A stretch of DNA of 60,037 nt, counting the filler, from Hausera hauseri (lineage: Eukaryota): the NCBI GenBank assembly GCA_046269625.1. It is 10 parts of 10 records of this genome, joined end to end, with 100 filler letters (N's around TTAATTAATTAA, not from the genome) between each part and the next. Parts side by side here need not be neighbours in the genome. Positions count along the whole stretch, not along the records: positions 23,439 to 29,260 come from JBJURY010183083.1; 9 more parts are not named here. The stretch is one strand, 5' to 3'. Both the position numbers and the translations under genes were made by a program. The notes under the pieces were generated by a model that saw nothing but the letters and a program-made list of their open reading frames with translations, ran no database searches and was not told the DNA's origin. Positions 16,477 to 49,956 of the stretch are shown here, in pieces. The stretch's first letter is position 1. Every line of letters starts with the position of its first letter.

Positions 16477-16576
16477 NNNNNNNNNNNNNNNNNNNNNNNN
16501 NNNNNNNNNNNNNNNNNNNNTTAATTAATTAANNNNNNNNNNNNNNNNNNNNNNNNNNNNNNNNNNNNNNNNNNNN

Positions 16577-19500
16577 GTTTAGCAGTTTGTAAGAGCCAAC
16601 GTATTGAGGCCGAAAACCAGACAGTGAATAATCCTTCAACCATGCAAACTTGGCTGAGTGTATATCCTCTGGAATATAATATTTATCTTTATTTATAAGA
16701 CGGCAAAAGGCGTTCGAGTTTACCTCTACAAAGTGGGACTGTGCTGCACGAATGACTTCATCTGATGCACTTTCATCCAGATTGGAGAGCTCAAATAGTT
16801 CACGAATTGGTGTCCCAAAGAGAGCTTTAGTCGTGGCACAACCAGTGGTAGTGGATGGCGTGTTGCGCCAACCAAGTAGAACAAGAGGAAGAATCGAGGT
16901 CCAATTACGATTGTTATTTGCCAAGATTTTTAAAGAAATCTTCATGGTACGGCGAAATTTCTCAAGAAGGCCATTTGTTTGGGGATGGTACGGCGCAGTA
17001 TGGACGTGGGCTATCCCCAAGTGCTTTACTAGAGATTTAAAGTGATCAGCTTCAAATTTCGGACCCTGGTCCGTTATGATGTGACGTGGTGAACCAAAAC
17101 GGCTGACCCCTATTTTGATGAATGCATCTGCTACTGAGTCAGTGTTGGTTGATCGAAGCGGAACGGCTTCAGGCCAGCGTGACGCACGATCCATCATGGA
17201 TAAGATGTGTTAATAGCCGTTGTCGGATGGCAAAGGACCGACAAGATCCAAATGCACAGTGTCAAGACGGGACGTACAAGAGAAGTGGTAAAGTCGTGGT
17301 TTTAGGTGTTTGTGAACCTTGTATTGCTGGCATGCTGCACATTCCTTGACCCAGATCTGTACATCTGTACCCATGTTCGGCCATACAATGTGGCGTTGCA
17401 GTAAGTGAAATGTGATTTTTGAAGCCGGGTGATGAAGAGAGTGAAAGTGATTGAAAGCTGTCTTTTGTTGCGATGGAGCAAGAATGATCTTCTTGTTGGT
17501 CGTGTTGGAAGTGTTATAAGCGATGCCATCGATGATTTCAACAGATTTAAAAGCTTGAAGAATGTCAGATGATGGCTAATTGCTTTGCAAGACCTCACAG
17601 GAGAAAATTGGCTGAACTGTAATTAAGTTAACCGACCTCGAAAGAAAATCCGCCACTAAATTTTCGGTGCCAGAAATATATTTTATGAAAAAACTAAACG
17701 TCGACAGGTATGATATCTGTCGTTCTTGTCTGGATGATGGCTGTTTCAAAGTTATTATTTGAAGTAGAGGCTTGTGGTATGCTTGGATGGTAAATTGACG
17801 TGAAAGAAGCAAGTGCTTGAAATGCTTTACCGCTAGAACTACAGCCAATTGTTCACGGTCGAATGTTGAGTATCGACTTTCCGGTTGCGTGAGTTTTCGA
17901 GAATAAAACTCTAATGGTTCATCGACCACAGCTGTGGTTGAGGCATCGGTTGTTAATATTAGTTCAGCGTTTAGCTTTATAAAGCCAAGATTTCCACAGT
18001 TTTCAAACCTTCACGAATGCAATCAAATCGGTTTACTAGATCAGGAGTCAAATGGATTAATTGTCTTTTCTTTCCAGATGAGAGGTGTGCAAACAGTGCC
18101 GTTAGTTCGGAGCAGTGTGGGACGTATTTGTGTACGAAATGCAATGTACCTAGAAAACTCCTCATATCTTTAGTTGTAGTTGGCAACGTTACATTTTTTA
18201 ATTGTTGTAAGCGATCAGGCTGGTGCGAATGCCCTTTGGGAGTAATTATGTGGCCTAGGAAGTTTACGCGTTTTTGGAAGAAATTGCATTTGGCGAAATT
18301 AATTTGCAGGTTACTTTATGCAATCTGTAAAAGTAATTTTAAGATGCTGATGCTGTTGTTTCATGGAGCTGGAAGCGACTAATATGTCATCCATGTATGG
18401 TGAGCAAAATCAAGCCCAGAAAGAACGGTGTCAATGTGGCGCTTAAAGGTCTGAGATGCTCTACGTAGGCCTAAAGGCATGAAGATGTATTCATAAAGAC
18501 CAAACAGTGTGATGACAGCAGTTTTAGGAATGTCATCAGGTGCAACAGGGATTTGATGGTAGGCCTTTTGCAGATCAATGGTAGAATAGGTATTGGTGTA
18601 GCTGAGGCTATGAAGAATATCCTTGATGAGTGGTAGTGGATAGGCATCTGTAATACTTAGATTATTTAATTGTCGATAGTCGCTACATGGCCTATAGTTT
18701 CTATCTTTCTTTACCACTGCATGAAGAGGCGAGGCCCATGGAGAATTCGATCTCCGAACGATGCCAGACCTTTCCAGTTCATTAAACTCCTGCTCTACAG
18801 CTTTACGTCTGCGTGGCGACAAAGATCTGACCTTCCGTTTGATAGGCCTCTGATGTTCTGTTACTATATGATGATAAATTGAGGATGAGCACTTAAAGTT
18901 GATGTCTCTTTTAACTACTCGAAAGCATGATGTTGTGATATATGATCTAAGATGGGAATCTAAAGATAAGAATGATTGAGGCGTATAATTAGAAAGAACA
19001 GCAGCAGTGACTGAAAAGAGGCAACTGGCATCGCTGCTGTCGACACCTAATTTAGATTTCTGTTTCAGAATAGATATAGGATTGTCGTTCATAATTAAAG
19101 GTGTACTAACTTTATCGGAAGTTTTTTAATAGATAACGAAACGTTCAACATGTTTTCAGATGAGTGCAATGAATTGCTTGCTGGATTGTCTTCGAGACAT
19201 ATGTTTGAAGTTGAAATCGAGTTTCTGCTGAGAAGACAGCTGTATTTGCAATCTACCAATATATCATGTGCGGCAAGGAAATCTGAGCCTATTATGGGAG
19301 ATTTAATATTGACCACGTGGAACTTCCAGACAAACTTATCTGGCAAGTTTGCGAATGTAAAAGTCAATTCCGTGGTTCCTGCAACGTACAACGGTTGTCC
19401 ACTGGCCGTGAAAAGTGGAGGACAAGAAGTTATAGTGCATGTAGAGGTGAAAGGCAATGGAAGGAGTGAAAAAGCAGCTCCTAAGTCTATAAGAAAGTCG

Positions 19501-20936
19501 ATATGTGAAGTATAACTGCATAACAGTGCAGTCTTCAACAGAAAGACTGCAGAGGCGGTGTTGAAACGGTCAGAAGATTGAGCGATATTGCCTGCGCCAA
19601 AATGTGCCGTAAAATCTGGCGGAACCATTAGTTTTTTGGAGGATTTGGAGGAAAGGAAGAAGAGAGAGAAAAGCGAGGAGATTTTTCGTTGTAATGTTTA
19701 CAACCAGGTACACATGATCTGGCTTGTGACTGATATTAGTTGTGGTATATACAAACAGGGTTGTTTACAGCGTATCGATCACTGTAGAATCGACAGCCCA
19801 AAAAACATTTCCGCGCTTCCTTTCGAAAACTCGTGTGGTAAAAACAAGTCATACGATCGCCAGGTGAAATGGACCGAGAAGAGTGCCTTGAAATGCTTCA
19901 CTCTATTGAAGGTCTGGTTTCACTTAGTCGAGGCCCATTAAGATTGTTCAGTTGGGTAATAATGGCTAAAATCGATTGCTGCAGCTTGTCAAACTGTTGC
20001 TGCATCATTTGTAATTGTTGAGTAACAAACGCGGTATCTAAAGTTGAAGCACATGCTGTTGCAGCCGCAATTGGGAGAGAGCTGTTGGTGTGAAGAATCT
20101 TAAAGGATTTGTCAGCCATTATTGCTAGTTTTTCGATAGCAGTGGACTCGTCGACAACGGTGAGTAAGGCTCTGATTGAGATGGGCAAAGACGATAAGAA
20201 ATAACGGCGAATTAAATCCGTGTTATTCGTAAGTGTCACTCTAAGCGCGCTGAGCTGCAAAACGTCCATTTGAAGGAAGTCGGATGGCTTTTGGCTTCCT
20301 ATCGTACCTTTGTATTATTTTGGCAATCAAACGATCCGTGACATGCAGTACAGCTTCACATATTGTCTCGTAAGGTGTTGAGGATTGTAGCAGCTCGGAG
20401 ATATTATTAATCTGCTGCTTGATGTTGGCAGGCAGAAGAATTAAAAGGTTATTGGCTCTCACAAAAGAATCTGTGATGTTGTTGGATTTTAGCCACTGTT
20501 GGTGAAATTGGAGCCATGGTTTGCTGGAGTTATTTTTATCAAGGAAAAACTCCACACAAGGCTAACTTAGCGAAACTCGAGCCTGTTGGGAGTGGCAAAC
20601 AATAGATGTTGCATGTATTCGTGGATTTATCATCCGAACAGGATGGATTTGGATCCCATCCATCCCGAAGGCGAAAATGGAGCATAAGGTGGATGACTGG
20701 ACGTTTGTGGCATACGAAAGACAAGAGGGAGTTTGAAGGATGTATTATAAGCCCTTGATGTGTCAAATAGAAATCCGAAGTGTTATATGATGAGGACAGA
20801 GCGTTATATAAGAGTTTTGCTGTCTCGTTGAGTGAAGCTTTTATGGTTCTTGTATATAGGTTGTTGTGAAAAATACAAAGGGAAAGAAAAGGTAATGTAG
20901 TTCCGGGGGAGGTTTTGAGCCCGCCGGCGGTGGACA
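16577..20936 (-). mobile_element. Ty3/Gypsy retrotransposon A (gag-PR-RT-RH-IN), decayed, 3' end cut by contig end
   Basis: Gag with KP-, LAIMAD and two CxYH/C knuckle remnants; PR FLIDLGA; RT SPWASPLH, DYRQLN, IDLQKAYHQIP, frameshifted YMDD; RH FYSRKL...YSTFDRE; IN DRASRWPEA, ITDQG, YHPQTNG. Confidence 0.95.
19595..19637 (-). promoter_or_regulatory. Putative -1 ribosomal frameshift signal at the gag/pol junction of Gypsy A
   Basis: Slippery heptamer A AAA AAC directly before TAA, followed by a CGCCAGA/TTTGGCG stem. Confidence 0.6.
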
Positions 20937-23338: not shown

Positions 23339-24188
23339 NNNNNNNNNNNNNNNNNNNNNNNNNNNNNNNNNNNNNNNNNNNNTTAATTAATTAANNNNNN
23401 NNNNNNNNNNNNNNNNNNNNNNNNNNNNNNNNNNNNNNCAGATCAGAGTAAGTAAAGTATAAGTTTAAATTAATAAAACCAAAATCTCTTTATTTTTCTA
23501 AACTTATCACATGTAGAAAATTAAAAATACTTGTATTGATAACAATTAAGACGAAAATGTTGAACGAACAATTCTCTTTAGATTAATACATTTAACATAC
23601 GATCAACTAAAATACACAATTTTATACAAATTAAAATACATTAGTTTTAAAAGAACATTTATGAAATCTCTGGTAGTATAACAGTAGTAACGTTTCAAAT
23701 ATAATTTCCTAGACATTTTAAATTCTTACTTAAAATTTACTTGAATTTAAATCCAATTTTCATTCTAAAAGATTGTTAAATTATACGGTAGTAGCATAAA
23801 CAAATAGAACAAACTGACGGACACTATGTTCAGACAGTTCAATTTGTAAAATAAACAGAAATCAGTTGAAGGCAATACAACTTACAAAATAAACATTCTC
23901 GATAAATGATTGGAATAATCTTTTCTACGAAATAAACTTTCTACGTGTAATTCAAATTACTGTGCAATTTAAATTACATTTTCGCTGATGGCTATTTGCA
24001 AATCAAATTAAATTTTATTTTTCTTTTAAACAATGGAATGGAGTTGTAATTATTTAATAATTAGAATAATGTAATTTTATTTATCATGGAAACTTTTGTG
24101 ATTTCGAAATGGTATAAATACTAGTTGTATTTCGACTATATTTTTAGAAACAAAACTTCTGATTATGAGTCTACCTACTAGAAACGTA

Positions 24189-24541
24189 TGTTATGATGGA
24201 TGTGAGTCTTATTTTATTTTGATTTTTCTTAAATTATTGGTTTAATTAAATATTTATATTTTTATTTCCTTTTTGTTTTGATAGTTACACGTCAGACATT
24301 AGTTGTTAAATAATTACCTATTGTAATAGGAAAAATAAATATAATATAAAGGGCACGATTTTGGTATCCCGTTCAATAAGGTTCGGTTGTTAAAATACGT
24401 AAATAAGGAGATTGTCGATAGTGTACCTCCTAGCTATCGAATCACACCTTAAAGTTAAATAATAATTAAGTAAGAATAACAACCCACAGGTTGCTACCTG
24501 ACTAATAAGTATAAGTTAACTTCGATCCTTTGAACTTAACA
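24189..24541 (+). repeat. 5' LTR of retroelement B (353 bp)
   Basis: TGTTA...TAACA inverted termini, internal AATAAA, immediately followed by a PBS; the start coordinate is inferred. Confidence 0.65.
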
Positions 24542-24542
24542 T

Positions 24543-24560
24543 TGGTGTCCCGAGTGAGGA
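24543..24560 (+). promoter_or_regulatory. Primer binding site, resembling the complement of the elongator tRNA-Met 3' end
   Basis: TGGTGTCCCGAGTGAGGA versus TGGTGCCCCGTGTGAGGA (recalled tRNA sequence), 1 nt after the LTR CA end. Confidence 0.75.
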
Positions 24561-24691
24561 GGCACACTGGCGTCGTATTACTAACGAAATAAGCGTAAAG
24601 TACACGTTAATAACATAATCAAAACTACAGATTCGGCGAGAGGCTTATCCAGTTCTGAAACAGAAAACCTTCAGACAGAAGACGATCCCAA

Positions 24692-25480
24692 ATGTCTAGT
24701 TCTGGAATAGGTGCAAGCTTAGGTAGCAACCTGAGTGGCTCAATGGTTCCGCCGATGGAGAAGCTCAAAGGCAAACCAAATCGGGACTACAGTGAGTTCC
24801 TGATGCAATACCAAATGTATTCAGAAAGCTTCGGATGGACAGACGAGCTCAGCATAAAACGCCTTCCATTTCATCACAAAGGTATAGCACTCAGTGCTTA
24901 TACCCAAGTTACAGATGAGGATAATGCTCATTGGGCTAGCCTTAAGGACTCCCTGGAAGAAAGGTTCTTAGTAGACCCGTCAAGAAAGAGTCGAATTACA
25001 GAATTCAACAATAGACGTCAGAGAAAAGGCGAAACCGTGCAAGAGTATGCATGTGACCGTCAGAAGTTGGCTCAGATAGCCTACGCAGATGAAGATATAA
25101 GAGAAGATGCCCTTCTACCTCAGTTCTGTAATGAAGTAACAAGAGAAAATCAGAATTATTATCGTTGCTGATCCTGACACGTATAAAGAAGCTGTCAGCA
25201 AAGCCAGGAAAATTGAAGTCAATTATGAAAGATTGGAGAATTTAAAGAAACTTCCTAAAACGATAAAAAGAAAGTGAAAATTTTTCAACAGAAGAAAAAT
25301 TTTCAAAAGCCGTGTCAGAAATTCGAGAATCAGACAGAGCAACAGAAGGTTGCCTTTCAGAAACAACCTCAAAAGTCTGCGATGGAGAAACCGATAGTCA
25401 ACCAGGATGGACAACCATTGTATGTCGCCTGTCAGATGTACGGACATATAACCTGTTCGTGTCCCAGTCAAGGACAGTCA
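24692..25480 (+). pseudogene. Ty3/Gypsy-type Gag (capsid plus degenerate zinc knuckle) of element B
   Basis: W.SLK..L.ERF, RRQRKGETVQEYA (major-homology-like region), QFC; knuckle YVACQMYGHITCSCP; frameshifted. Confidence 0.9.
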
Positions 25481-27050
25481 AACTCAAAGAAAAAGAATGA
25501 TATAATTGGTAATATATCTGATACGGATAATGAGCATGAAATTACAGACACAGAACCTGAAAACACAATAGAAAAGCTCCAACAAAAGATTAGAGCTAAG
25601 TTGAAAGGAAGTAAAACTGATATGGTAGATGATGAATATAAAGTAGCTGAATTAAGGCAGCTATATTTAGAATTAAAAGAGCAGCAAATTTGTGAAAAAA
25701 TACAAAATAATGAACGAAATTTCAATTATTGATCCAATAGGTAAGCCTAAAAAGAACCCTGCATCAGAATCAGATAATAAAATGAAAAAAGGTTGAGAGA
25801 GAAGATAAACTCTTGATGCAAGAAGAGGATTTGAAGACTCCTGAATCAGATTCATCCTCAGGTAGTGAAAAAAGTGATCAAAATGAAAAGATAGAGTAAG
25901 AAAAAGGAAAGTGAAGGAACTACAACAACAGTTCGAAACTTCACCTGTAGATTTGGATCAAGACGGTACAGAAATAGTTCGAAAAATATCAAGTTATGAC
26001 AATCAAGAATTAATTGATGGTACCAATTCAGAGAAGACCTTTCAATGTTGTTATCACCTACGACTAATCATCAACAGTTTGCTAATTTACTAGATCTACT
26101 GTTAGTATATGCTGATAACAGTCCACATCAAAATCCTGTACGACATATAATTAATCGATATGCAGGCAGAATAAGGACGGTCGGAGAAAACCCAGAAGTT
26201 ATGGTTACTCTCCAACAATGTCCTAAGGATGAAGTCGTTGGACACAGTAGCTCTATTGAAACAGGATTAATGAAATAGCTCAGCCTCGAATAGAGTTAGA
26301 GTTACGCTTTTATGGTCGAACCTTGTTGGATCACAAAACCATATACGAAATGGATATGTTGGAAAATAGATATAATCCTGTTTGTATCTTTTAAACAAAC
26401 TGAGAAAAAAATAATTGATGAAATTATTACTAACAATTGACAGAGATGCAAGAAACTGAACCACATCATGAGGTTCAAGACCGGAATTGAACCAAATATC
26501 CATATTCAAACAGATTCACACCGATAAAAGAAATTATGGTAGACCCTAAGGAACGACGAAACTTTATCAATTAAAATGCAGAAAAGCAAAGGATGATATT
26601 CGAAGATTACTAACAATTGAAGAAGAGCATGATGCAGATAATGTTTCGTCGGCAACATTACTGCAAACCTTAATAGCAAGAATGGGAAATGCATTTGTCG
26701 AGCTTAATACGAACTTACAGATACCTGATTCATTAATGCAGACTATCAGAAACGAAATAGCAAAAATTAGTGAGCAATTTGCAGATATTCCTACAGATGA
26801 GAGAATAAACGAGATACGAAATATACTCTCCAGAATGATAGGAACAGATATATCCAAAAATATCTCCTATATAAAATAATGTTGATGAACAGTATCAATC
26901 TAAATCAGAAAGAGAAAGAAACAGAAGTTGCCACAAGCGCACTGAAAGCTAATGTAGAAGGGCGGGTAAAGAGTAGAGGTGGATACAAGAATCAGACCTG
27001 TTAGACAACAAACAGAAAACCCTCCTCTACAACAAGACAGCAGTATCAAC
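25480..27050 (+). pseudogene. Uncharacterised ~1.5-kb coding tract between gag and env (coiled-coil/acidic, then globular)
   Basis: Chain of broken plus-strand ORFs (25274-25732, 25911-26278, 26682-26879); no PR/RT/RH/IN motifs. Confidence 0.5.
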
Positions 27051-27059
27051 AGTCAGATC

Positions 27060-28961
27060 TTGACCTGTCTTGGGTAATTAAAGTTCTGCCCGTTCTTTTG
27101 TTGTTCAATTTCATGCCGAAAACATTTTCAATCGTGGCTTATGATAGAAGTCAAGCGAAGGAAGGTCCTATATATTCGCTGCTATATTTAGATAAATGTC
27201 CATATATCAACCCAACATCATTCACTACAGTACCTAACAAGAATATCATGTCCATCAAGAATCGGAATTTGTGAAAACTAAAGTAAAAGAATGTTTCGTG
27301 CGAATAAATCGTTTCCACTTTATTTGCGGTTACTGGTACAGAAACTCCGCTATAGTAGAACTCATTTCGAACCCTTCCAACCACTTCCGATAAGCAAGTG
27401 AATGTGTGTAGAGGCCTTTGTAACCAAATCAATATCGAAGGTATTCGGTTGAAGGCTCAAAAAGGTAAAATTATTAGCAAAAGAATTTTTTTAGTTTGAA
27501 CAATCGACAAAACTGGTTATTGTAAAGGAGAACCATACTACATAAATGGTGAAATTTTGGATAACATAGTAGACATTGAGGATTATCAAGTTGGACTAAG
27601 AGAATATGACGTTATTTGAGTTACCATCTGGAAAAATGATGACATTCCCTGAAAGTGATTATTACAACAAAAAACGCGATACAAGTGATTCAATCATGTC
27701 ATATGAAGTCGACAAGGATGAATGCCATTTGGCCCTGTTGAAAACCGGAAAGTTTAACGAAACAAGGACGAATAAAGAAATATTAAAAAACAAAATAGAT
27801 CGAGTGTCAGATACAATCAAAATCCCAACTATAATACATTCGGCAAACCGGAGTGAAGGGATGAGGTTAAAAATAGAAAGTGATACAAAGAGATGTGAGC
27901 AAGTAGTATATCGAACAAACTACAAAGGAATATTTTTATCAACAACCGAAGTAACTAAAGCATAAAGAAAATTGATAAATTGGAGGTGAAGCAGCGTCAA
28001 TACTTTGATAAAATATATTTCATTTACCATTTTCATCAAGAAAATATCTATACCATGTACCGTGAAATAATCTTAAACGACTAGAAGTTGAGCAGAGAAA
28101 TAATCTGGAACAGAATATACTTATCAACAATACCGGATGAAATAATAAAAGATCCAGCTTAATCATCCGATGCAGAAAGAAAATTTACACGAACGATGAG
28201 ACAAAATCTTGTAACTTTCGAATGTACTAGAGTAACNNNNNNNNNNGACCGACTAGTGACTGTACAAGGGAGCTACCCGTTTGGTACAAAGAGAAGCCGC
28301 GATTTTTGCAACCGATTACCCGGATATTGTTAGATCCCATGGGAAAATCATACGTACATCAAAATTGTACATATACGATGTCGCCAGAATTTCGACTAAG
28401 CGACAACTTTTGAGTAAAATTGCACAAAATGAGCAAATTACTCCATCTCAGAGAATAAGTCTAATCAATTTGAAGACTGAACAAACATAAGCCACTTAAA
28501 GACTTAGTAAAGATGGGTGTATATTAAGGAACAAGATACGGAGATTCATAAGAGAATGATGTTCCCCAACAGATACAGAAAGTTTTAACAGAGACGGCCG
28601 TGAGGGTGTTAGTTGATCATACTGAAAAGGCTAATTGGAAAAACTTGATGGGACCAGACTACGCAAAGCAAATCACAAAGGATATATTCGCTACCGCATG
28701 GGCATGGTAAAATGGTTTGGTCAATTCAATTCTGGATGGGTGGGATTCCATTATATTCTTGCTTTTATAAAAGCAATTCTTACAATGGTAACCAAAAGAT
28801 ACGGTATAAAGCAAGCCGCTAGATGTACATGGAAAATAATCTATGCCTTGATTCCATCCATAGCTAGTTGTTTCTTAATAAAAAAGATGCTGAATGGAAC
28901 CAGAAGAATAAAAACAAATGATTCTAACGATGATGAAGATATATCTCCAACAAAAAGATAA
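27060..28961 (+). pseudogene. Envelope glycoprotein of chuvirus-G / herpes gB-like (class III fusion) type
   Basis: Internal signal peptide WVIKVLPVLLLFNF; IVAYD...YSLL...CP; ECFVRINRFHFICG; GYCKGEPY; CEQVVYRTNYKGIFLS; FECTRV..RPTSDCTRELPV; C-terminal FGQFNSGWVGFHYILAFIKAIL membrane region; many stops; 10-N gap at 28237-28246. Confidence 0.8.
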
Positions 28962-29110
28962 AAACAAATTCTCATTCAACTTCTTCCGTGAATACTAAAG
29001 ATATGGAGTTTAATCACTTCTAAAAGTAAAAAGCGGAGAAAATTACTTTCATATATTCCACAAAAAAGAGAATGAATATTCAATAGAACAGCAACAGTTC
29101 ATTACTTCCT

Positions 29111-29260
29111 ATGATTACATTGACATACATTATTCTGGTGATATGGAAAATTACGATCCGAAACACGAAATTAACGTTTTATCCAACGGCTCCAAAAGAA
29201 GCCCTAATAACTAATACACATGGTGGTAAAGTAATACCAAGAACGGTAATCTGGATTGAT
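29111..29260 (+). pseudogene. Post-env frame with a PTAP motif and possible start of a retropepsin protease
   Basis: FYPTAP...VIPRTVIWID at the contig end resembles the PxVxIxG strand preceding ALIDTGA; the catalytic motif lies beyond the end. Confidence 0.35.
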
Positions 29261-30700: not shown

Positions 30701-31049
30701 TACCGATCACTAGTGCTCCAGTGCACTATTGATTGGCACATGTGCAAAATCGATTTATCGATTTTACCCCCTCCCCGGGGTGAGGGAGAAGGTATATTTT
30801 CCTACTACTAAAGGTCAAATGGCAGAATTCGGCACGATTACGAAAATCATCGATTTTATCCAGCATTTCTTTATGATTATAAAGAAAAACCAAAAGTTCA
30901 CCATTTATTATCAAATAGAATAAACCTGCTAATTCTTTATTCAGTGTTTCGTAATTGCTGTAGTCCTTTTTCAAATCTTTCTGATCCAAAAACGCATCGA
31001 TGTCGGTAATACAAACTATGATCTCTCCAAGAATAATATGCTGAGGATC

Positions 31050-33533
31050 AAACAAACAGGAACCATGGAGCCTGTGAAGGATGTCGTTGATTAATTGTAG
31101 AGGGTAGGCATCCGTTACTGTTGTAGTGTTGAGTTGGCGGTAATCACCGCATATGCGAAAGGTACCATCTTTTTTGGAACCACATGTAGTGGTGAAGACC
31201 ACGACGATTTGGATCTTCTGATTATTTCTTATTTTTCCACTTCGAGAAACTCGGCCTCCATTGCCTGTCTGCGGCGAGGTGGCAGTGGGTGGACCTTTTG
31301 ACGTATTGGTCTTTGATGTGCTGTTTCTATATTATGGAATGTGGATTTAGGTGGTACGAATGATTTGTCCTTCTGCAACAGACGCGTGCCGAAAGACGAA
31401 ATGTATTGTTGTAGATCAAAAGGCAACAATGAAAAGTTATCCGATGGTGTCGATGCATCGTAACTGGATGTAGTTAAGGTATGAGTTATACACGAGGTGT
31501 TATGGCTAGGTGGTATTTGGTGCAGGATGTTCGTGCTGAATATAGTGTTAGCAGCAGTACTGTCAGTAATAGGTGCCACGCAGTTGGCAATATCGTATTT
31601 GAAACCGTAGTAAAAATTTCTATATAACGAATGATTATAAAAATAATTTAAATATGAAATCGTTTTCTTTAGTATTGACTTCCTGGCAGCGGTCGCCCGG
31701 GTGATCACCGAAAGGCTGATAATTTGATTAAGATTATTTCCGCACTTTAAGGAACATCGATTGCAATCTACAAGTAAATTGTAGTGGGACACAAAGTCTG
31801 AACCCAATATAGGTGTGCGTACATTGGCCACTGTAAATTTCCATGCAAATGTGTTTGGAAAGTGTGGAAGAGTGTACGTTAATTTGGTAACTCCAAAAAT
31901 TTGTAAAGGTTCACCGGACGCAGTGAACAGTTACTTTTTGAGGTGAAATTGTTTTGGATGTGTTGTGTTGGTGGCAGTAGAGAGATTGCTGCGCCGGTGA
32001 TTATAAGAAAATTAATGTTTTGCTTTGTTGGAGTGACGACTGTAGCTCTCAACGTGAGTAGAGCAAAGGAAATGTGTCGGCTATCTTTTTGCACCTTGGT
32101 GCCTTTGCTAGGACTTGCCGTGTGTCCTAGGGGCAAAATCAGTTTTTATAGTTGTTGAGTTTGGACTACTGTGCCATGTGAATTTAGTAGTGTTGCTTTT
32201 ATTGTGTGTGTTGTAGTTACAGCCAGATAGGCATTTCTGTGCTTTTGTGCCAAATTTTGAGTGATAGATGCAAACGATGTTGCTTGTATTAAAATCAGTG
32301 GAGTAAAATTTACAACCGATGCAGCATTTCTGAGAATTGTTACCAAATTTGCTATGATAATAGCAAATAGATGACCGCGCGGGCGAAGGCGACCGTCTTT
32401 GACGTTGAATAAATACATTAGGGGAAGCAGCCCTAGAAAAACCCCGTCGAAGCTGCGTTAATTTGTTTAATTTTTGGTTTGTGGTGTTGATTGTCTTTTG
32501 TAACATTTCATTTTCCGTGCGTAATTGCGCAATTTGTTGCTGCAGCATTGAATTTTGTTGTTGTTGGTCTGTTGTTAATGCTGCATAGAGAGTTCATGTT
32601 GTGTGTGAGTGCAGTACATCATATGCTTTGTCTGCCAGTTCGGCTAGCTTGTCCAGAGCCGTGGAGTTCTCGACCACGGTAAGCAAAGCTCTTATTTGAA
32701 GGAGAAGTGCATTTAAAATATAGTGACGAATAAGTTCTGGACTGTGCTCAGATGTTACGCCAAGGGTGTTAAGGTGAGACAAGAACGTGCATAAGAATTC
32801 AGAAGGCTTCTAAAGGCCCACGGAGTTATCGTTGAAGAACTTTTGAATGATGGAGTCGATTGACGGCTCAGTAAGCTTGAGAACAGCATTGTAAAGTTGA
32901 GCATATGGATCGGTGTGCTGAAGGATATCGATGATATTGGTAATTTTAGTTTCGATGGAAGCTGGTAAGTGGAAAAAGACGCTGTTATCTTTGGATAAAG
33001 AGTCGACGACGTTTTGTGATTGGAGCCAGAATTGGTGCAGTTTTAGCCACGTTTGAGTAGAGTTTTGGCTGTCGAGGAAATATTCGGTGCAGGGTGAATG
33101 AGTGAGGAGGGTGTGTTATGTAGTGGTGTTTGAAGCACTTTGTTTGGATAAGTGAATGATGGGGATCTGTGGTTTGGTTAGTTTGTCCGTGGTATCAGTT
33201 GTGGGTGATGAATCCATGACACCACGGATACTGAAGTGAATGTGAAAACAGATGTGATTTGAGGATGATTGTAGAGTTCCAGCGAGGGGTACTAGAGATC
33301 CATTTATATAAGGTAGAAATCAGAGAAGTAGAGTAAGGTAGAGATGAAATTGTGAATGGCTGCAGTGTGTGAGTAATGCTGTATGTGTTTATGTATTTAT
33401 GTATAAAAAGAAAGATGGAGTAGGGAGAGGTGATATTCCCGGGGACGTGTTGGGGGCGGCAGCTAACGGCGCCGTCCGACCCAATGGTGCAGGATGGGCG
33501 GCTGGGAACTCAGCTTCGCCGCGGTGGGCCTCA
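31050..33533 (-). mobile_element. Ty3/Gypsy retrotransposon C (same family as A): gag, PR and 5' RT only
   Basis: Gag from ATG near 33218 with KPSEFL, LDKLAELADK and two CYYH/CIYHSKFG...KC..GC knuckles; TAAAAAC-TGA plus CTAGGAC/GTCCTAG hairpin; PR FLIITGA; RT KDGTFRICGDYRQLN..DAYPL, truncated near 31050. Confidence 0.93.
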
Positions 33534-35259
33534 AATTTTGGGGTAAAAACAATAATGAAAATTTTAGTTGTTTGAATCAACTAAAGCAAATTCTCATTAA
33601 ACTTACCAACAGGAAGACGTTCAGCATCCAAAAACACATGATATCCACGGAGTCGTAAATGCACCATCAATAGACTGGCTAACTGATATCCGTTACTCCG
33701 TCGATATAAGATAAATACATCTATATTCTTTATAATTGGTTCATTGTACATAGAATCATCAGCATGATTAGAAACAACAAAATTATCAATTTGTGCACTG
33801 GTGGATGACAATTGACGTGGCAATTCTTTCATATAATCGACATAATCTATTGGTTGAGTAGTAACAGCAACCTTAGAGCCCTTCATAAACTTCATTTTAT
33901 AATCTTCTACTGCTTTCAGAATTCGCACTCGGTGGACAGAATTCGTTACACAGCAATCTTTGGCCAGTGAGTTATCAGTTATGTTCGAAAGAAACTTTTG
34001 ATCCACGCCCGCTTTGATAGATGAAGATGTGTAATGACAGAAATCTGATCCAATATGCATTTTGAGCCAGTCTAGACACCGGTGGAATCACATGCTTCGT
34101 ACGTTATAATATTTTTCAATTTCATTATCTCCCTCAGTAATCGAATTCGGGTAATTTTATTTTTTATTTGTATATGATTTTCCAAAATCTCTTCCGTCAT
34201 CGTTAACAAAATATCGACATCTATACGGAGAGATTCAAATAATTCATAAAGATCGTCAAATTCGATCATTTTGAGCCCATGACAAACATCTTCTACTTTC
34301 CAAATAGGAACAAGATGTGAAAAGCTGAAAGAAATATTTTCATTGAGAATTTTTAATGCTTGGCAGGCAAATTGAGCAGCTATTCGAAAAGTACTAGAGG
34401 CGACTTTTCTAAGACAATCAGTAGCACCGGTATCGCTAAATAGCTGAGTTTTTCCTTGCCTATGCTTGATTCGGGCTTCCATTACAAAATGGAATGAAGC
34501 CAATGAAACAGCTTCAATACTGCCACTTTTAAGAATTGGTAAAAGCTGCTGCAACCACTTGGATGATCGACCTTGAAAATGCGACTTTTCAGTTTTTGCG
34601 AAATTATGTGACGAATGATTTCGTAAAAACAAAAAAACTAGTTCTAATGTTCCTGATAAATAAACCATATGAGCTAGTTCTCTATGGGCTGATAGGACTA
34701 CAATAGCCATACAGGCACAATACTTTATAATAACGTCTTCATTAAAAGCTAACGGAAACAACCAATCTGAAACTTTATAATGACCCATTGTCATCTGGAT
34801 GTAAACATTTCCGAAAAGACCCAAATTAACTAACGCAAATGCAACGTGCATAGGAGTTGCGTTATCGGTCGACCTGCATGAATAGATGAAACTTTTCAGA
34901 CCATCACATTGAACAATGAGTCTATTTGTTTTTTGTGATGTTTCACCAAACCTTCGAGAATGGAAATAAATGCTCGATTTAAATCTTCATTAGGCAATTC
35001 AAATGCAGAAAACTGTGAAATGTCCAATTGGTATATCAATTCCAAAACGTCATCATACAGACATTTAGTTTAACTTCATAATTTCGATTTCGTTCTTTGC
35101 TATCATCGAAATCAGATTCACAGAAATAATTTGATGTTGTAATCTCAATAGGTATAGATATTTCTCGTGCAGTATTTTCGAGAAAAACAGCAGTTTCCGG
35201 TTTGTAACTGCTTTGGCTGAAAATCTCACCCTTTTCACAGTCGGATAACTCACTAGCAC
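33534..35259 (-). pseudogene. SARM1: SARM1 homologue (ARM-SAM-SAM-TIR), intronless, disabled, TIR truncated
   Basis: WLFPLAF, LQQLLPIL, AFHFVMEA-like motif, VPIWKVEDV (SAM1), [13 protein letters not shown] (SAM2), [44 protein letters not shown]; in-frame stops at 34072 and 33581 and upstream frameshifts. Confidence 0.95.
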
Positions 35260-35359: not shown

Positions 35360-38300
35360 GTTAAAAGATTGAGTAACTATTCGACTCCAAAATTCTTATT
35401 TGTCATTAAAAATAACGTTCTGAAAGAATATCAACATGGTATCAACAAGATCGGTTGAAATTATACAACATAGTTCTTAAAAACATCCATTTCACCATTT
35501 TGGGTTTCAGAACTAGAATTATTGTTCGTCAAAGAATTCGAATTAAAAAATACGTCGTAAGCAAAATAAATTTTATTCCATCATCAAAAATTAATTACGT
35601 CTTTCTTTTCCCTATTATAAAACACGCCCCTTACAAGAAAGTAAATTATTAAAAATAATCTTCTTGATCGAGTTACATTCGGATGATATTTCGAGTAGAA
35701 GTAACTCGTTGAATTGTACCCTATTACCGATAACTGATAGTATAAAATGTAAAGACACCATAAACAGGATAGAAAATTCATTATAATTCCCGTAGTGATC
35801 CACGGCTGCATCCTGTAACTACAAACTGCATATTCAAAGGGATTTGCACCAGACACTTGTCCGCAGCTGATTGACAAATACCTAATGCTAATATTTATAA
35901 ACAAGGCCATCAGAGAAGCACTGTGAAAAAGGAGAAAAATAAAATTCCTCATATTATTTCGTCCAATGCACTTCATCAAAAACAAACAATGATGATCCAT
36001 ATCAACTATGCAATCTTCACAGAGTTTGCAATGCTTCACTTGTTTCGGTCGTGGATAGACTTCACAAAACGTACAAAATCTATCATAAGGAATAGCATTC
36101 ATCGACTTAATACCCGACTTCAACATTCGATGGAATTCATTGAAAAAATCCCGGAAATTCGAATATTCGATTTCTGAAATTTTCAGACGACCCGGATCCA
36201 CAATAACAATTCGTAAATAACACAAGAAAAATAATGGCAATAGACAATAGATGAGAAGCAATTGCCACTCAGTTCCGTTCATTTTTGGATAAATTTTTAT
36301 GCAAAACACAATCAAATCGTGAGTAAATCCTGCAAAATAAGCCCCGGCGAAAATCGGGTTTTGATCGATAACAACGACATTCACCCGATGGCCCTGCGAT
36401 ATGACAAATACAGACATGGCAATGGAACACACCGCAAAAATAATGTAGTCGTGTTGTACAAAATAGTGCGACAGGAAAATGGTGAAGAGGAAAATAGAAA
36501 ACGGTAAGAAAAACAAAACGAATCGATACATTTTGAAATTGATCCGCAGCTGAGCCAGAGACATTATCTGAAGAACGAAGAAAAGCATTGTGAAATGCCA
36601 ATTTTGTGATTTATAATCATCGGGTAATTTGCTGTAGGCATCCGCGGGAGTTTTGTTCTCCGAATTTTTGGCAAAAACAACTGTCGAATCCTCTTGAGTC
36701 AATAACAAGTCAACATCGAACATGGGCATTCGTTCAACGTTGTGGAATACCAACAATGGTACGCATTGTAGCTGGCGATTTTCAATTGCCAAATGGAGAC
36801 AGGTATTTCTATTTTGTCGAGTTCTATCCAAAATATTCGTCCGACTTTTTCGTAACAAAAATCGAATACAGTCGATTTTACCGTGTACACACGCCAGATG
36901 CAGACAAGTCTGACCGAAATTGTCTTTGGAAACAAAAGATAGTTCGGTAAAACTCTCGATCCATAATAATGCTGGAACGCTACCACTGATCACAGCACAA
37001 TGAGCCAAATTTTGACCCTAAAATGTAAAATACATATTCAACATGTTTGACCCAAAACAGGTTCAACTTCATTTTAATAGACACCCTTAGTATCGAATCG
37101 ATGAGTGTAGTAATGTTGGATTGAAAAGCATGCACAAGAAAAATATTCGGGGTCGAACCAACCCATACCAATTAAGAGGAATCTTTAAAATAAAACTAAG
37201 TTAAAGATATAAACTTTTACAGAAAAAATCGAGCATTGTGTCAATATTCATAACTTTTAATTCGCTCGGAATGTTTTCGACATTTAGTATACTTTACTTC
37301 AAAGGTCTTTATTCTTTATTTCCATACGTAGTTTATAATCGCAATGGAAGTTGTTTAAATTCACAGATAGTTTCCACCACATGCAATAATATTTGTAAGA
37401 TCCTGACGAAGGTGCAGGAATTCTTTGTTCAAAGTGGAGCGTTGTAGATTTTGCAAAGAATTCGAGAAAATTATACATTTCATATTTCGTATGTAATGTT
37501 TTATTTCTTGTAGCCTCTATATGCCGAAATGATGGGAAACGTTTATAAGTGTATTGACGCAAAATCATTTGAATTACAATTTCTTTCGATTTTTCTAGGA
37601 TTTTTGGTAAGTATCGGAAGCTGAAGCTTTCTTTCGATACAGTTCTAATAGATTTGTAATTTCTTTCGTAATAATAGACAGAAACGTGCATTAATATAAT
37701 GATATTCTGATTTACAGAAAGTTTATATTTGACATGCTATATTTCGATTTACAATATTCTTTACCATCAATAAATTAATATTAATAAAGTACTACATAAC
37801 ATTTTGTCAACATATTTGGATAATGTAGTTACATAATATTCAAATTCAAATAAATAGAATCAATGCAAAAGCAAACCATTGAAAATTCCATTGAAAAATA
37901 AATTGTAATTTTGAAAAACAAAGCTAAGATTTTTGAATTAATTTGGTGAACATAATATGCTTGCCAAATTCGGCATTCCGCTTACATGACAGTTGTTGCT
38001 CTATATATCGATACAAGCTTATTCTAACAGTGGAATTTTACCATACGGGCTTATAAATTAATGTCGACAAACGTGGTAACTTTTTATATCGACGTCGATT
38101 GAAAATTTTACTCGATTTTTATGAAGCAAAACTGACTTTTTGAAATCACATTATTATAAAAGGTTCGGTATATGTTTCCCAAATGAAATTTTAATTCATC
38201 CGTTATGCTTAACCTCGAATCCCTTAAGATTCGATTAACCCCGAATATAACATGAAACGTATAATATTAGTTTCACAATCTTCAGTTTTAGTATCAATTT

Positions 38301-41336: not shown

Positions 41337-41861
41337 GGTCGCCAAAACAAATTCTTTATGAAGCAAGGCAACAAACGCTGAATAAATGTACTACCGGATA
41401 TTATTCATGCATACAATCATTCGACACCTCTTGGCATCAATGGATTACGGCCGGTTGACATAAACGAAGATTTGGACATGTGTTGTTATCAAAACCGAAC
41501 ACAACAATATGCAATTAAACGCCCAAAATATAAAATCGGCGCTTACATACGTATTTCGAAAATAAGTACGACTTCATTCATTAAGAATATCAATCAGAAC
41601 TGGAGCAATGAGGTTTTCCGCATTTCGACAATCAACACAAAACAAACAACTGCCATGTACGTTTTAGAGGATGAAAACGATGAGGAAATACGCAGTAAAT
41701 TCTACAAACAGGAACTGCAGATACTGCCCGAGAAACGCGATATATATCGTATTCAGGAAATTTTACGTTCAGGCTGTAAAAGTTCGAATAAACAATACCT
41801 CGTCAAGTGGCACGTATATACTACACCGAGTTGGATTTTTGCACCGCAGATTGAGCGATGA
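41337..41861 (+). pseudogene. Maverick retroviral-like integrase C-terminus with chromodomain
   Basis: LPDIIHAYN..H, KYKIG..IRISK, F.K...NWS.EVF, FYKQELQ, YLVKW...SWI. Confidence 0.92.
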
Positions 41862-43214
41862 ACATTTATTTGATACTTGATAGTAACAGATTATCAGAAC
41901 ATTAAAACAACAATAACAATACCGCTGAACGGTTTACCATGGCGTTGGACCAGCCGCTCGACATATGCCAGGATCCTTGGAAGTGGCTTTGGCGCAATTC
42001 ACGTTTGCATTTTCACCAATAACAATACGTGAGAACAGTGGAATATACTATACCCTAGTAGGACAATCTCCTGCATCTAGTCCTTTGCAGTTAGTACGAG
42101 ACTCTAATGGAACATTTCATGTTCACAATTACAAGCGGCAATATTTTTCGTTTTATATTTTTCATTTAAACTCTCAATTGGTGTAAAAACACAAACATCC
42201 GATGGAATTGCAATTTAAATCACTAGCCCACGCTAAGGCATGGGGTTTTCAATCTGTCAGTGGGCGCTCGAAAGGTCTACAGCTCAGTGGGCAGAGTATA
42301 ATTAGTGAAAAATTGAACTTTTTTACTGCGAAAACCACCGATATTACAGTGAACTGGCAAAAGACTGAATCATTCATTTACTCACATGTAAAAGGAATTG
42401 GTTTTCTTATGGAAACCGAAACAGAAATGTGTGCAAACATCAAGGCAGTAGCTAAATTGGCTCTCAAGACATTTGAATTAAACTATGATGGTCGTATTTC
42501 GTTTACACTATACGATAATGTTACAAGGACTTGTCAAGGGGTTGTCAATTAGTCAATGTACACTCAAAACGTCTACGGCTAGATGGACATGTTATAATTG
42601 GTGAAAAATTGGACCTTTCATCCTATGCGGAATCCGATATTATAATAAAGTGGACTAAGTCAGAATCAGTCTTCCGTTCATATATTATACCACACGATTT
42701 ATTAATGGAAACAGAACTGCATTTATGTGAGTACGTCAAGAAAACGGCTACATTAGCCGTAAAGACATGTAAAATAAACGCAGATGGTCATATTTCGATT
42801 ACACGCCATGACAATGTTACATATTTTGCCTTTGATTAATTATTGGCTCGGAATTTGGGTTTTTCAAAACGCGAATTATATCAAAACATTGTTGGACAAT
42901 ACATTGTTGCCAAATACAAACCAAAACTCTATGGAGCAATTCATAGAATCAACATTTTAACGGACTTAACCGAATCCGTACTCGTTGGTGGAGAACGTAA
43001 ACAACGACTGGCTTCTATTGAACTAGATTCTGACACGTACAAAACATCGGGTGAAACTGTTCGCATTAATATGCTCAGACTCATGTACTTATCATTGTCT
43101 CACAATATTGCACACAATATTTCCATGTATATGCTTGATGAATTTTTGGAACCCATTAAATTTCTGTTTGGATCAACGAGACATTTCACGTTACATCTTT
43201 GTCGTCGTCACTAA
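41858..43214 (+). pseudogene. Minor capsid (penton-like) protein 1 with internal domain duplication
   Basis: ATGA overlap with the integrase stop; MNIYLILDSN, EVALAQF, LARNLGF, TDL.ESVLVG, MYL, TLHL.RR. Confidence 0.8.
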
Positions 43215-43257
43215 CTGCGTCATCACTATCATCATCATTATCACCATCATCGAGATC

Positions 43258-44344
43258 ATGGGTATTTACATGGTGTTGCCGAGCAACAGTTGTCCGACTA
43301 CTCATCCGAACAAATTTAGCCTGTGAATACGTTGTAGATCGGAACAATCCTTTCAATTTATCTGGAAAATGGGAGGTTGCACTGACGGAATTTAACTTTC
43401 CCTACGCATCAGTGGCATTGAAAGGTAGTGTGATAATAACGTACAACAACACTGTTACTGAAACTAAAATGCATTCTTGTCCTCTGACACTTGCTAACAA
43501 TAAAATAACAGTTGGAGAATCGGCCATTTGTACGACCAAAGCAAATTACGGTATATTCGGCAAAATTGGTGTTTTTATTTTAGATCAAAACTTACATTTT
43601 ATGGCAAATTTTGAATTTACTGTTACGTTTGAGTCCTCTGAGATGGCGTAAAAATTTGGATTCAAAAATACAAAGTACAAAGGTACAAATATTAAAAGTG
43701 AAAACACAGTTGCTCCAAGATTAAGTCCCGTATATTACCAGACAACGGAAAAATTTACCTATACAGCATAAAGGGTGTCAACATCATACGTATCAATTGC
43801 AGACAATATTTATTGCGAATCTGTAGCACATCTCTGTCAACACTTTTCTTCAAATCAAAAGTACAAGGAGATATTTAAAGTTTTCGAGTCAGATGCAAAT
43901 GGGTACATTAAATTTGAACTCGCTAAGGATATTGTTGAAATTTCATTAGAAAAAGCTTTGGCCATGATATTGGGTTTTGAATAACAGCGGTTTGAAGCAT
44001 CGACGGCGGCGGCACATGTTGCAATACTTAAACCCAAACTGAAAACGGGACTAAGTCAAATGTATATTTGCGTGAACGTCACCGAACCGATTTTGGTCGG
44101 TGGAGTACGTGTACGGCTACGCCATGCAATTTATCCGGAAAGCAGCAAGTATACTGTTGGCGACAATGTTACTGTCAAGCTCGATAATCCAATGTACCTA
44201 CCTGTGGCATGTACATCTATAAATAATGCTGAAGTGAATATCCGATGTCTCGCGGGCTAAATTATTGAATTTCTGTACGGAACCACTACCAGTCTAACTC
44301 TTCATTTCCGTCGAATTCTACAACAGCAACAACAACATGATTGA
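43258..44344 (+). pseudogene. Minor capsid (penton-like) protein 2
   Basis: MGIYMVLPSN, GKWEVALTEF, LAMILGF, MYIC..TEPILVG, NPMYLPV, LTLHFRR. Confidence 0.85.
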
Positions 44345-44668
44345 TTGTGAAATCGTTTTCATTTACAGTAAACTCCAGCAAGGCGGTGAACTGCCGTATT
44401 TCGTTGGTAAACAGTACGGCTCTGGAAGTTTGCATACATTCGCACGTTTAGCGTTTCCGGTGTTGAAGCGTATTGGAGCCGTGGCAGCAAAAACAGCGCA
44501 GAACGTACTACATGAAAACAAATCGATTTTACCATCATTGAAGAAACACGCCTTGTCAGAAAAATCGTCAAAAAACAATTCGCTGGCAGTGACTTGAGAA
44601 AACGCCATAGAGCATCACCGAGCTCATCAACTATAAACAAACGTCGTCGTCATACGATTTTCATTTGA
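44337..44668 (+). pseudogene. Small basic core-like virion protein
   Basis: QQGGELPYFVGKQYGSG...FARLAFPVLK; Gly-flanked putative maturation-protease sites; basic tail ending ..RRRHTIF. Confidence 0.7.
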
Positions 44669-44687
44669 TTGATTAATTCATAGACAA

Positions 44688-45839
44688 ATGGAATATGCAA
44701 AATCTGAATTGTGCATATTCGACAAAGCGGCGCCACAAGTTGTTATTGGAAATGCGGAATTTAAAGAAATCTACCCCGTTGATTGGGTTTGAACGGTCGA
44801 CAACATTGACATTCAATTCAACATTATGGCATCGGCAATGAATACCTGGATTGTAACGATAGGCTACTCTGTGTAAAAGTCATTGTTAAGAATTCGTCAA
44901 CAGTTTGCGCTGCAACAGACACTATCACACCGGCCAATTACATTTTCCTGACACTGTTCCAGGAGGCTTTACTGACTCTGAACAGCGTCAAAATCGAAGA
45001 CAACACCAGTCTATACAGTGTCAAAGCACTCATTGAAACGGCTCTGAATTACATCGCAGACACGAAAACGATTCATTTTATAAAAACCATCGGATACAAT
45101 GCCACAGCGGCAAACCGTCAGGCAAGGGTGGCAGAATCAAAAGCGCTTACAATATGTGGACCGCTGTACTTTGACTTTTTTGATCAGCCGAAATACCTAC
45201 TGCCTGGTGTTAAAGCCATGATTGGGCTCAAACGCAGCGACAATATTTTTTGTTTAAAAACTGCCGTTGCACAGCTTAAACCCATACTGAAAATTACCGA
45301 GGCACGATTATACGTACGTCGAGTAAAGGTAAAACCATCTGTGCTCATGGGACATCGATTCGGCTTGGAAACGCAAAATGCATGCCACCCATTACAACGC
45401 ACAGAACTCTTGTTTTACACCATACCAAAAGGTTCAACTACGTTTCACAAAGATGCACTGTTTGGCAACATGTGATTGACGATATTTGTGCTCGATACAT
45501 TTCAAAGGACTGTTCAACAAACGGGCAGTTATACCACCAATTCGGAAACGTTTACCCATAGCAATGTGAATTACACCAGTTTGGGTCGGAATGCGGATTT
45601 GTTGAGACGTACAGACAAGACTTTGAGTCTAATGATTATACTTGAACATATATGCAATCTATCGTGCGCAACATAGGTTTGATGAACAAAAATATCAACA
45701 ATGGCATATCGATGGATTTGTTTAAGTCCACATATCCATTCTTCACCTTTATCCTAGCTGCAGATTATGACGTTGAACAGACTCAACTACCTCAGCAGGG
45801 AAACCTACGACTGGAGGTTCACTTTGCTAAAGCGTTGGA
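44688..45839 (+). pseudogene. Major capsid protein (double jelly-roll), cut by contig end
   Basis: MEYAKSELCIF..Q..I...EIYP, PLYFDFFDQPKYLLPGV, ARLYVRRVKV, GNLRLEVHFAKAL. Confidence 0.9.
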
Positions 45840-48336: not shown

Positions 48337-49956
48337 ATTATAGAGTTTGTTTGGTATTATTTTTGTTTTAACTACTCTCTAAACCGATATGGCTTCTTTG
48401 CTGTTTATATTTACATAAATTGTGGTTGGTGCAACCTTAGTAACTTCATAAGGTCCTCTACCGGTTCTAGTAAGTTTGAGGGATGTGCCTTTTTTGCTAC
48501 TGAGTAATGTATGTAAACCCAGTTCCCGGGTTCAAAACCGTGTAGTTTAGTCTTCTTATCGTATTGCTTCTTGAATTGTTCATGGTATTCTTTAGATAAT
48601 TCCTTGGCTATCTCCCAACACTGGTGCAATCTTGATTGTATTACTTCAACAAAATTTTGTTCTAATTCTTCTGTTTGTGTTGTTTATGGACTCAGTCCTA
48701 GATTTGTAGGGAGCGCAGCTTCTCTTCCGTACATCATAAAAATGGAGTGAATCCTGTCGCGGGATGTGAAGTAGTATTAATTGCAAACTGTGTACCTTCT
48801 AAGAACTCATCCCAATCCTTTTGGTCTTTTGCGACTACCGTCGATAAAATTCGTGTAACTGTTGCGTTCATCCGCTCGAACATTCCGTTACATTGGGAAT
48901 GATAAGCTGTGGTAGTTAGTCGTTCAATCTCAAAAATTTTGGTAATTTTATAGAATAATTCACTCGTAAAGTTCCTTCCTCGGTCCGTCAGGATTTGTTC
49001 GGGTGGCCCATATCTGCAAATCATTTGCCGGACTACTACCTCTGCCAGAGTCTCTACCTTTTGGTCTATTAACGCTACAAGTTTGACGAAGTGAGTTAGT
49101 CGATCTACACAGATCAAAATATACTTGTTGTTTTTATGAGTCGTAAGTAATGGTCCTACAATATCCATAGACATTGCTTGCATTGTTCTATCAGGCACGT
49201 CGATAGGTTTAAGTTCGGCGATGTAGTTTTTTACTTTTTTTTGTTTAATTGCACACACCTCACAAGCGTTCACCCAATTCCTCACATCAATGTAAATGCT
49301 CGGCCAATAATATTTATTTAAGATTGTTTCTAGGGTTTTTTTCCACGACATTTGTCCGGCTAAATACAAATCGTGCTCGGCCATTAGTACTTCTGTACGC
49401 AATCGTTTTGGTATGACTACCAATTTTCGTTCCTTTCGTTCGTAGTATAACACATTTCCGTGGCTCAAATCTCTAGCGACGCGGTATTTTTGACCATATC
49501 GTCGTAGGTGTTTCCGTAACTGATGACCCTTGGATGTTACGTTGCTACCAACGAACTCGATAATCTGTTGTATAACCTTGTCTTTTCTCTGTTCGACAGC
49601 AATCTTCAATGTCTTATCCAGTGTAAGAGTCCGTTGTCTTTCTACCAAGTCTTCGAGGTGGGCTTTCCTTATTACCGTAACTGCGCTTGTTTTGGTTTTA
49701 AGTCTCGATAATGCGTCGGCGTCGACATGCTTATTTCCGGGTTTGTATTGGAATTCAATATTGTAATGGGAGATCTCCTCAATCCATCTGTTAAGTCTAC
49801 ATGTTGGATTATTCGCTCTACCCTTTAAAGTTCTAACTGCCTTATGATCGGTAACGATTACGATCTTTTGTCCGTATACGTACATGTTAAAATATCTTGG
49901 GGCCTCTTTCACTGCTTACGTTCTAGTTCCGTAACAGAATAGTTCTTCTTGGCTTT
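48337..49956 (-). pseudogene. Ty3/Gypsy element D: RNase H and integrase
   Basis: KKNYSVTELE, VTDHKA, YKPG..H.DADALSR, YYWP..CEVC, SMDIVGPL, ILTDRG.NF, TTAYH.QCNG.FER.N, GPY, YNLR. Confidence 0.95.

Follow-up and report, generated by a model that had tools for sequence, protein, structure and literature searches.

The stretch of DNA analysed here, the window, comprises 60,037 nucleotides (filler included) of the Hausera hauseri assembly GCA_046269625.1 and consists of ten short contigs. Contigs adjacent in the window are not to be taken as genomic neighbours, because they were joined through N44-TTAATTAATTAA-N44 linkers (linkers at 11055–54230). The 5.8-kb contig at 23439–29260 carries part of a long terminal repeat (LTR) retroelement in which a gag capsid gene, a coding region of about 1.5 kb (region X) and a class III envelope gene (env) follow one another. 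This copy, at 24189–29260, is decayed, as an earlier note on the sequence had stated; it is dead and encodes nothing intact. Stops and frame changes break it up, and a gap of ten N's (N10) lies inside env at 28237–28246. The following features were delimited.

24189–24541, + strand: candidate 5′ LTR (TG...CA), with a 3′ end supported by the sequence and by a similar LTR end before the primer-binding site (PBS) of the related locus L007
24543–24560, + strand: PBS compatible with tRNA-Met(CAU), after ...TAACA-T, with the CA end at 24541
24692–25240, + strand: gag capsid region from ATG 24692, with a frame change inside (Pfam PF03732, relatives, tblastn tiling)
25421–25462, + strand: single zinc knuckle, degenerate here (zf-CCHC of the relatives P0001 and P0002, window translation)
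25955–26190, + strand: conserved five-helix module directly before the ubiquitin-like (UBL) domain (alignment, profile and helices 3–79 of a model with a predicted local distance difference test score, pLDDT, of ~70–89)
26192–26412, + strand: predicted UBL domain, split over two frames (profile A5, model, window mapping)
26526–26546, + strand: GRP motif (window translation), which occurs in 4 of 15 proteins and in 0 of 6 loci checked
26622–26998, + strand: predicted Bcl-2-like domain, split over two frames (profile A2, P0002 model, window mapping)
27065–27130, + strand: putative internal signal peptide of env, with a presumed cleavage (hydrophobic stretch, gag frame in P0002)
27131–28961, + strand: class III env of chuvirus/glycoprotein B (gB) type, with ectodomain, transmembrane segment (28737–28790) and tail, and many stops and frame changes (PF24664, tblastn, P0026 model)
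29219–29260, + strand: probable first aspartic protease strand, truncated where the contig stops, ~9 codons short of the expected position of the catalytic Asp

The left part of the element is consistent with Ty3/gypsy membership, combining an LTR and tRNA primer-binding site with a retrotransposon-type gag and its CCHC knuckle. The CA at 24541 and the PBS at 24543 are mirrored in L007, whose PBS-like site shares 16 of 18 letters by hand count; the 5′ limit of the LTR is a candidate, and neither a second LTR nor a target duplication was found in the contig for a start at 24189. The proposed resemblance of the PBS to tRNA-Met stands in part: compared with the eLife tRNA table, it shows two mismatches in 12 positions to two Met_CAU rows, and equally to two unassigned rows. 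No tRNA or Rfam match was obtained in the window. Pfam PF03732 (Retrotrans_gag) matched 24659–25168 with an E-value of 5.6e-6, and a gag search returned two proteins from 315 candidates, P0001 and P0002, each 74% identical.

The connection between gag and env is provided by P0002, a natural relative of 1130 aa whose single uninterrupted frame contains gag, the knuckle and the N-terminal half of env. In tblastn, P0002 tiles 24695–28063 in order, in eight pieces of 44–72% identity and with no room for pol; since this colinear protein has gag, region X and env in one frame, no pol was lost between gag and env. Four motif patterns for protease (PR), reverse transcriptase (RT), RNase H (RH) and integrase (IN) found nothing in the six frames of the contig, and no tblastn match at E≤1 was obtained on the contig with the corresponding four P0003 domains as probes, in agreement with the original observation that pol motifs are missing between gag and env. 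Downstream of the TAG at 27002, no in-frame ATG precedes the env signal peptide, as had also been noticed; this is explained by a signal internal to the polyprotein, as in P0002. The single frame of P0002 likewise bears out the earlier suggestion of a single polyprotein whose signal sequence lies inside it. Scans with P0002 of IMG/VR (one stretch matched, not related) and, by sequence, of JGI (43 matched, 0 related) added no relative.

Region X, previously described as unknown coding sequence, resolves into a helical module, a predicted ubiquitin-like domain and, after it, a predicted Bcl-2-like domain. Its limits in the window were mapped from P0002, with domains at 26021–26412 and 26622–26998. 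In P0002 itself the Pfam leads within X are weak (ubiquitin, E 0.031; Bcl-2, E 0.055). Against the PDB, profile A5 matched the UBL domain of ubiquilin (E 6.8e-5) and SUMO1 (6.9e-4), and also the UHRF1 UBL and Bcl-xL, while all 60 matches shown for profile A2 belong to the Bcl-2 family (best E 1.1e-4). A model of P0002 residues 378–775 (alignment A5 folded, pLDDT 71) is predicted to adopt a ubiquitin fold at model residues 83–161 (Z ~10, root-mean-square deviation, RMSD, 1.3–1.7), and model residues 244–379 superpose on canarypox CNP058 (Z 13.4, RMSD 2.8, 126 aligned) and on BHRF1 (Z 13.0). A Z of ~13 is borderline for helical bundles; every one of the top 17 rows of this fold search belongs to the Bcl-2 family, in agreement with the sequence profile.

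The five-helix module matched no family in profile or fold searches. A conceivable resemblance to the TFIIS N-terminal domain found no support: no TFIIS-N/LW match was obtained by profile or by fold, model residues 1–80 being barely covered in the fold comparison, and no TFIIS N-terminal domain in a retrotransposon gag was found in the literature. The GRP motif is presumably AT-hook-like. Among ten related JGI loci, the helical-UBL profile matched seven and the Bcl-2 profile seven; L001 is not independent of these profiles, because it appears to encode P0038, a profile member. In L003 (1621–2850), the helical-UBL module is present as a tandem duplicate.

For env, Pfam PF24664 (Monjiviricetes_fusion) matched two of the three + frames, with stops read as X, at E 4.6e-10 and 4.8e-6, and homology to relatives runs in order across the N10 gap in tblastn. 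A structural match to class III fusogens had been named beforehand as the test of the chuvirus/gB-like assignment, and it was found for a natural relative, P0026. The model of P0026 (pLDDT 73) matched herpesvirus gB with a best E of 4.7e-11 at low TM-scores of ~0.23, and human cytomegalovirus gB with Z 10.7 and an RMSD of 5.7 over 261 residues; predicted chuvirus-like glycoproteins scored better than gB, with a best E of 2.4e-36. Env frame 1 searched against PDB sequences gave one chance match only. Together with the signal peptide and transmembrane segment, the window Pfam matches and the fold of P0026 agree with the class III env of the HSV (herpes simplex virus)/gB-type errantiviruses.

The contig terminates in PRTVIWID, as the earlier note had recorded while overlooking that these residues probably begin a protease. 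When the last 12 residues were scored against a profile of 23 relatives' protease starts, 0.4% of the 61,379 12-mers of the window scored as high, and in the alignment the final Asp of the contig sits nine positions ahead of the catalytic Asp. The distance from env start to protease start would be 716 codons here versus 682–913 in ten relatives. The contig therefore probably stops at the first protease strand, and pol probably follows env beyond 29260, as judged from sequence comparison with relatives. P0003 (3771 aa) and P0004 (3761 aa) have env at ~850–1490, followed by PR, RT, RH and IN in the same chain. A search with P0002 gave 1,381 matches, of which 150 were listed and 20 long ones among these scanned; 17 of the 20 carry PF24664, with a protease downstream in 12 (five with RT), whereas the other five end in or at env, and in none of the 17 does pol precede env. 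Among the ten JGI loci, L002–L004 are single open reading frames (ORFs) of 3184–3703 aa with env-PR-RT-RH-IN, and the others except L006 end in env. Of the distant relatives whose chain continues beyond env, 17 of 17 encode a protease in that chain, ten of them with RT as well. The order gag-X-env-(pro-pol) proposed earlier is supported by P0003, P0004, the scanned long matches and L002–L004. The errantivirus position of env between gag and pol is seen directly here as gag-env adjacency; the other half comes from relatives with pol after env and from the probable protease start in the window. A BEL/Pao-type gag-pol was not found: the relatives match RVT_1, RT_RNaseH, Integrase_H2C2, rve and gypsy-type proteases, and among Pfam-type families none matches a Pao-specific one. 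The choice of families that mark BEL/Pao follows general background knowledge.

The element belongs to a large, diverged, multi-copy family. Run X1 holds 5,968 contig records on the element stretch, 178 of them at ≥99% identity and most below 95%, none spanning the stretch; run X2 holds 700. The summed contig depth of X1, possibly the source sample, is not a copy number; it lies between hundreds and tens of thousands across 24414–29260 versus 3–13 in most of the flank, rises from 30 in bin 24219–24413 to 21,821 in bin 24414–24608 and persists to the last bin before the contig end, with region X as deep as env. X1 contigs without any difference cover 23483–23837, 23851–24386, 25671–26097 and 26221–26783.

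Collectively, we read 24189–29260 as the 5′ portion, now decayed, of a likely Ty3/gypsy-type LTR element that exists in many copies and in which Gag, a helical module, a UBL-like domain, a Bcl-2-like domain and a class III env form one protein, likely continuing into PR and pol past the contig end, and give this reading a probability of roughly 85%. Several observations weigh against it. The contig itself is without pol, the Ty3/gypsy PR-RT-RH-IN order being present in distant relatives, and the close relatives (74% in gag) stop before the pol position. The protease-start score is the best of seven registers and becomes weak once seven registers in three frames are counted. Beyond its broken env, locus L006 extends ~1.4 kb further, into a tandem repeat, and no pol match occurs there. 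Pol-bearing relatives are only ~35–40% identical in env, and in an env tree of 33 rows (P0005–P0024 omitted as near-duplicates) P0002 lies in an open fork; for both reasons, pol is deduced for the window family rather than seen. Profiles lacking P0002 match region X of the window weakly (iE 0.0011 and 0.034) and those with it strongly, so the domain calls in the window depend on P0002 as a bridge. The Bcl-2-like domain is patchy: no Bcl-2 match was obtained in L003, nor in P0003, P0004, P0027 and P0032, all four of which possess the helical-UBL module. Finally, in L001 a stop separates Bcl-2 from the signal peptide.

The earlier note had also considered a pol-less satellite, and a non-autonomous derivative that is pol-less or protease-only and supplies or borrows capsid and fusogen would account for a contig without pol motif, for both close relatives stopping short of pol, for the broken env of L006 with no pol after it, and for P0025 and P0027, which end after several protease-like domains without RT. 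We regard it as improbable, since every one of the 17 relatives reading past env has a protease, the contig ends where the protease is expected to start, and the truncations are explained by short contigs. Still less probable is an assembler mosaic of several repeat copies, in which the part 3′ of the N10 gap would stem from another copy. The gap inside env and the thousands of related contigs, none of them spanning, speak for such a mosaic; against it, identical contigs cover four segments within 23483–26783 (X1 being maybe the source sample), env homology is ordered across the gap, and a mosaic within the family would leave the layout unchanged. That an ordinary gag-pol-env element simply lost pol in this heavily decayed copy is very improbable and largely refuted by P0002, which is colinear over the entire gag-env span, while region X is covered as deeply as env and pol precedes env in none of the 17 long env-bearing matches, an order whose occurrence in full-length copies had been named as a refutation.

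For the favoured polyprotein, a topology can be proposed. Guided by the internal signal peptide, the env ectodomain would enter the lumen of the endoplasmic reticulum, and the env transmembrane segment would bring the chain back to the cytosol, so that Gag, helical module, UBL and Bcl-2 as well as PR-RT-RH-IN would be cytosolic and env lumenal. Host signal peptidase and the element's protease could then free the Gag-side proteins, env and the pol enzymes. Left attached to the Gag-side product, the signal peptide would act behind the Bcl-2-like domain as a membrane anchor and might draw capsid assembly to the membrane in which env resides. Viral Bcl-2 proteins suggest by analogy that the most likely role of the Bcl-2-like domain would be to dampen apoptosis, in the producing cell or in the receiving one. 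Bcl-2 proteins carry a tail anchor at their C-terminal end. The conserved Trp of the last Bcl-2 motif lies 46–56 residues before the mature env start in five of eight Bcl-2-bearing rows, which places the signal peptide at the tail-anchor position; in the remaining three the distance is 76, 111 and 122, the script possibly having chosen another motif there. No description of a signal-peptide anchor for a Bcl-2 domain was found in the literature, most subscription papers being beyond reach. More speculatively, and with considerable doubt, Burro, a giant planarian retroelement discussed below, might be the enlarged extreme of a broad clade in which compact enveloped retroelements encode a viral Bcl-2 of their own and occur in hosts beyond dugesiid planarians; in these, the env signal peptide would double as the Bcl-2 membrane tail, and one signal peptidase cut would yield a class III fusogen together with an anchored Gag-UBL-Bcl-2 product that blocks apoptosis.

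The relatives show further variation. Up to three or more aspartic-protease-like domains follow env in P0003, P0004, P0025, P0027, P0028 and L002, one of them after IN, and two extra hydrophobic stretches follow IN in P0003, P0028 and P0032, as if a second membrane protein ended the chain. In L002 (10617–12104, E 1.4e-5) and L003 (12085–13470, E 1.1e-3), an RNase T-type exonuclease is encoded further downstream in an ORF of its own. P0132 is a 2430-aa gag-pol relative with ~1,000 aa ahead of the protease and no Pfam env match. A lone in-frame TGA interrupts otherwise open frames at L001:3058–3060, L007:3103–3105 and L004:9955–9957, by decay or readthrough.

On the other contigs of the window, SAM-domain, ankyrin-DHHC and transposon sequences suggest an animal source; Atlas matches of the window proteins included none that is phylum-specific. 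At 33581–34986 (− strand), tandem SAM domains are encoded in two long open frames, which by eye look like a SARM1-like gene that is interrupted by a stop or a frame change and is nearly or entirely intronless. An unbroken 477-codon ankyrin-DHHC palmitoyltransferase occupies 35584–37017 (− strand), its nearest proteins being 44% and 41% identical, with 27% to Ptychodera. Three more decayed gypsy-type elements (16529–20314, 30726–32593 and 48432–49915, all − strand) are unrelated to the main element. The first of these and the RH-IN piece at 48737–49915 were tried as the missing pol and rejected, as they reach only 25–34% to the clade, within which IN domains are 63–65% alike. The + strand frames at 41382–45475, integrase-like and capsid-like by eye and with no Pfam match, presumably represent a decayed Maverick/Polinton. 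The contig at 50057–54130 is filled by a 68-bp tandem satellite, and 55449–56081 (+ strand) is a basic cysteine-rich repeat frame with weak TSP1-like Atlas leads (score ≤0.85).

The closest published layout is that of Burro (GYPSM1) of dugesiid planarians, for which PMC6431247 cites Grohme 2018 and Jurka 2007. In the passages of that paper compared here, Burro is one ORF with Gag-CCHC, a Ubi2/SUMO-like domain, BCL2, env and PR-RT-RH-IN; its env matches mononegavirus fusion glycoproteins, and Arkhipova and Yushenova 2019 call it the first case of an in-frame env between gag and pol and its interference with apoptosis worth testing. As in that description, the present element has UBL, then BCL2, then env in the gag frame (P0002 model and profiles, mapped to the window), very many copies and decayed fragments. 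Unlike Burro as described there, it is compact: in P0002, mature env begins ~810 aa after the start of gag, and the relatives' ORFs reach 3.2–3.8 kaa versus 4.9–5.1 kaa, one zinc knuckle replaces two to three CCHC motifs, and an extra helical module precedes the UBL. According to the same passages, Burro exceeds 30 kb, with an ORF near 5,000 aa and a dUTPase-like domain between PR and RT, whereas here the gag-env span is short and the contig ends at 29260. No MATH, BIR, ankyrin or SMC Pfam match was obtained at E≤1 in the window frames or in P0001 and P0002; lacking Burro's extra domains, the element is filed as Burro-like, not as Burro proper. The likeness is drawn from Burro's published description. 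Burro's hosts are dugesiid planarians; for the present element, the other genes in the window indicate an animal host.

Chary and Hayashi (eLife 2026, PMC13524379, citing Sacco 2022), in the parts compared, describe GAG-ENV-POL Ty3/gypsy errantiviruses of HSV/gB type in Nematoda, Bryozoa and Platyhelminthes and chuvirus-like glycoproteins beside gypsy pol. The present element shares their gB-type env, which here too probably precedes pol; by eye, six Schmidtea env rows (Platyhelminthes_C1a) share YQES, ELRE and TGES with P0002, whereas the nematode and bryozoan rows compared do not, and the elements presented there are intact whereas this copy is broken. The words Bcl, ubiquitin, polyprotein and Burro are absent from its main text, and Bcl and ubiquitin from its seven text supplements. 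Like Anakin and other BEL/Pao elements with a chuvirus glycoprotein (Dezordi 2020, PMC7642597, as far as the passages compared go), the element has a chuvirus-like class III glycoprotein within an LTR element; unlike them, its relatives have gypsy-type pol families and env inside the polyprotein ahead of pol. The novelty implied by the earlier note is therefore not sustained: the layout is already published in PMC6431247 and PMC13524379, in the portions compared, chuvirus-like env occurs in gypsy and not in BEL/Pao alone, and the surprise is correspondingly small. The element is a compact Burro-like member. Its predicted Bcl-2-like domain shares a fold with viral Bcl-2 proteins (canarypox CNP058, Epstein-Barr virus BHRF1, African swine fever virus A179L and Kaposi's sarcoma-associated herpesvirus Bcl-2; Z 11.9–13.4, RMSD 2.8–4.5, 126–138 aligned), from which it differs in lying within a retroelement polyprotein, followed by an env signal peptide, and in its 8–13% identity. 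The comparison links the Burro (UBL, BCL2) and GAG-ENV-POL gB-type errantivirus literatures, which contain no cross-citation in the passages compared, finds the UBL-Bcl-2-env core in compact form in several unrelated datasets and lends model-based, fold-level support to a retroelement-encoded Bcl-2, whose 135-residue domain in a compact family offers an easier apoptosis test.

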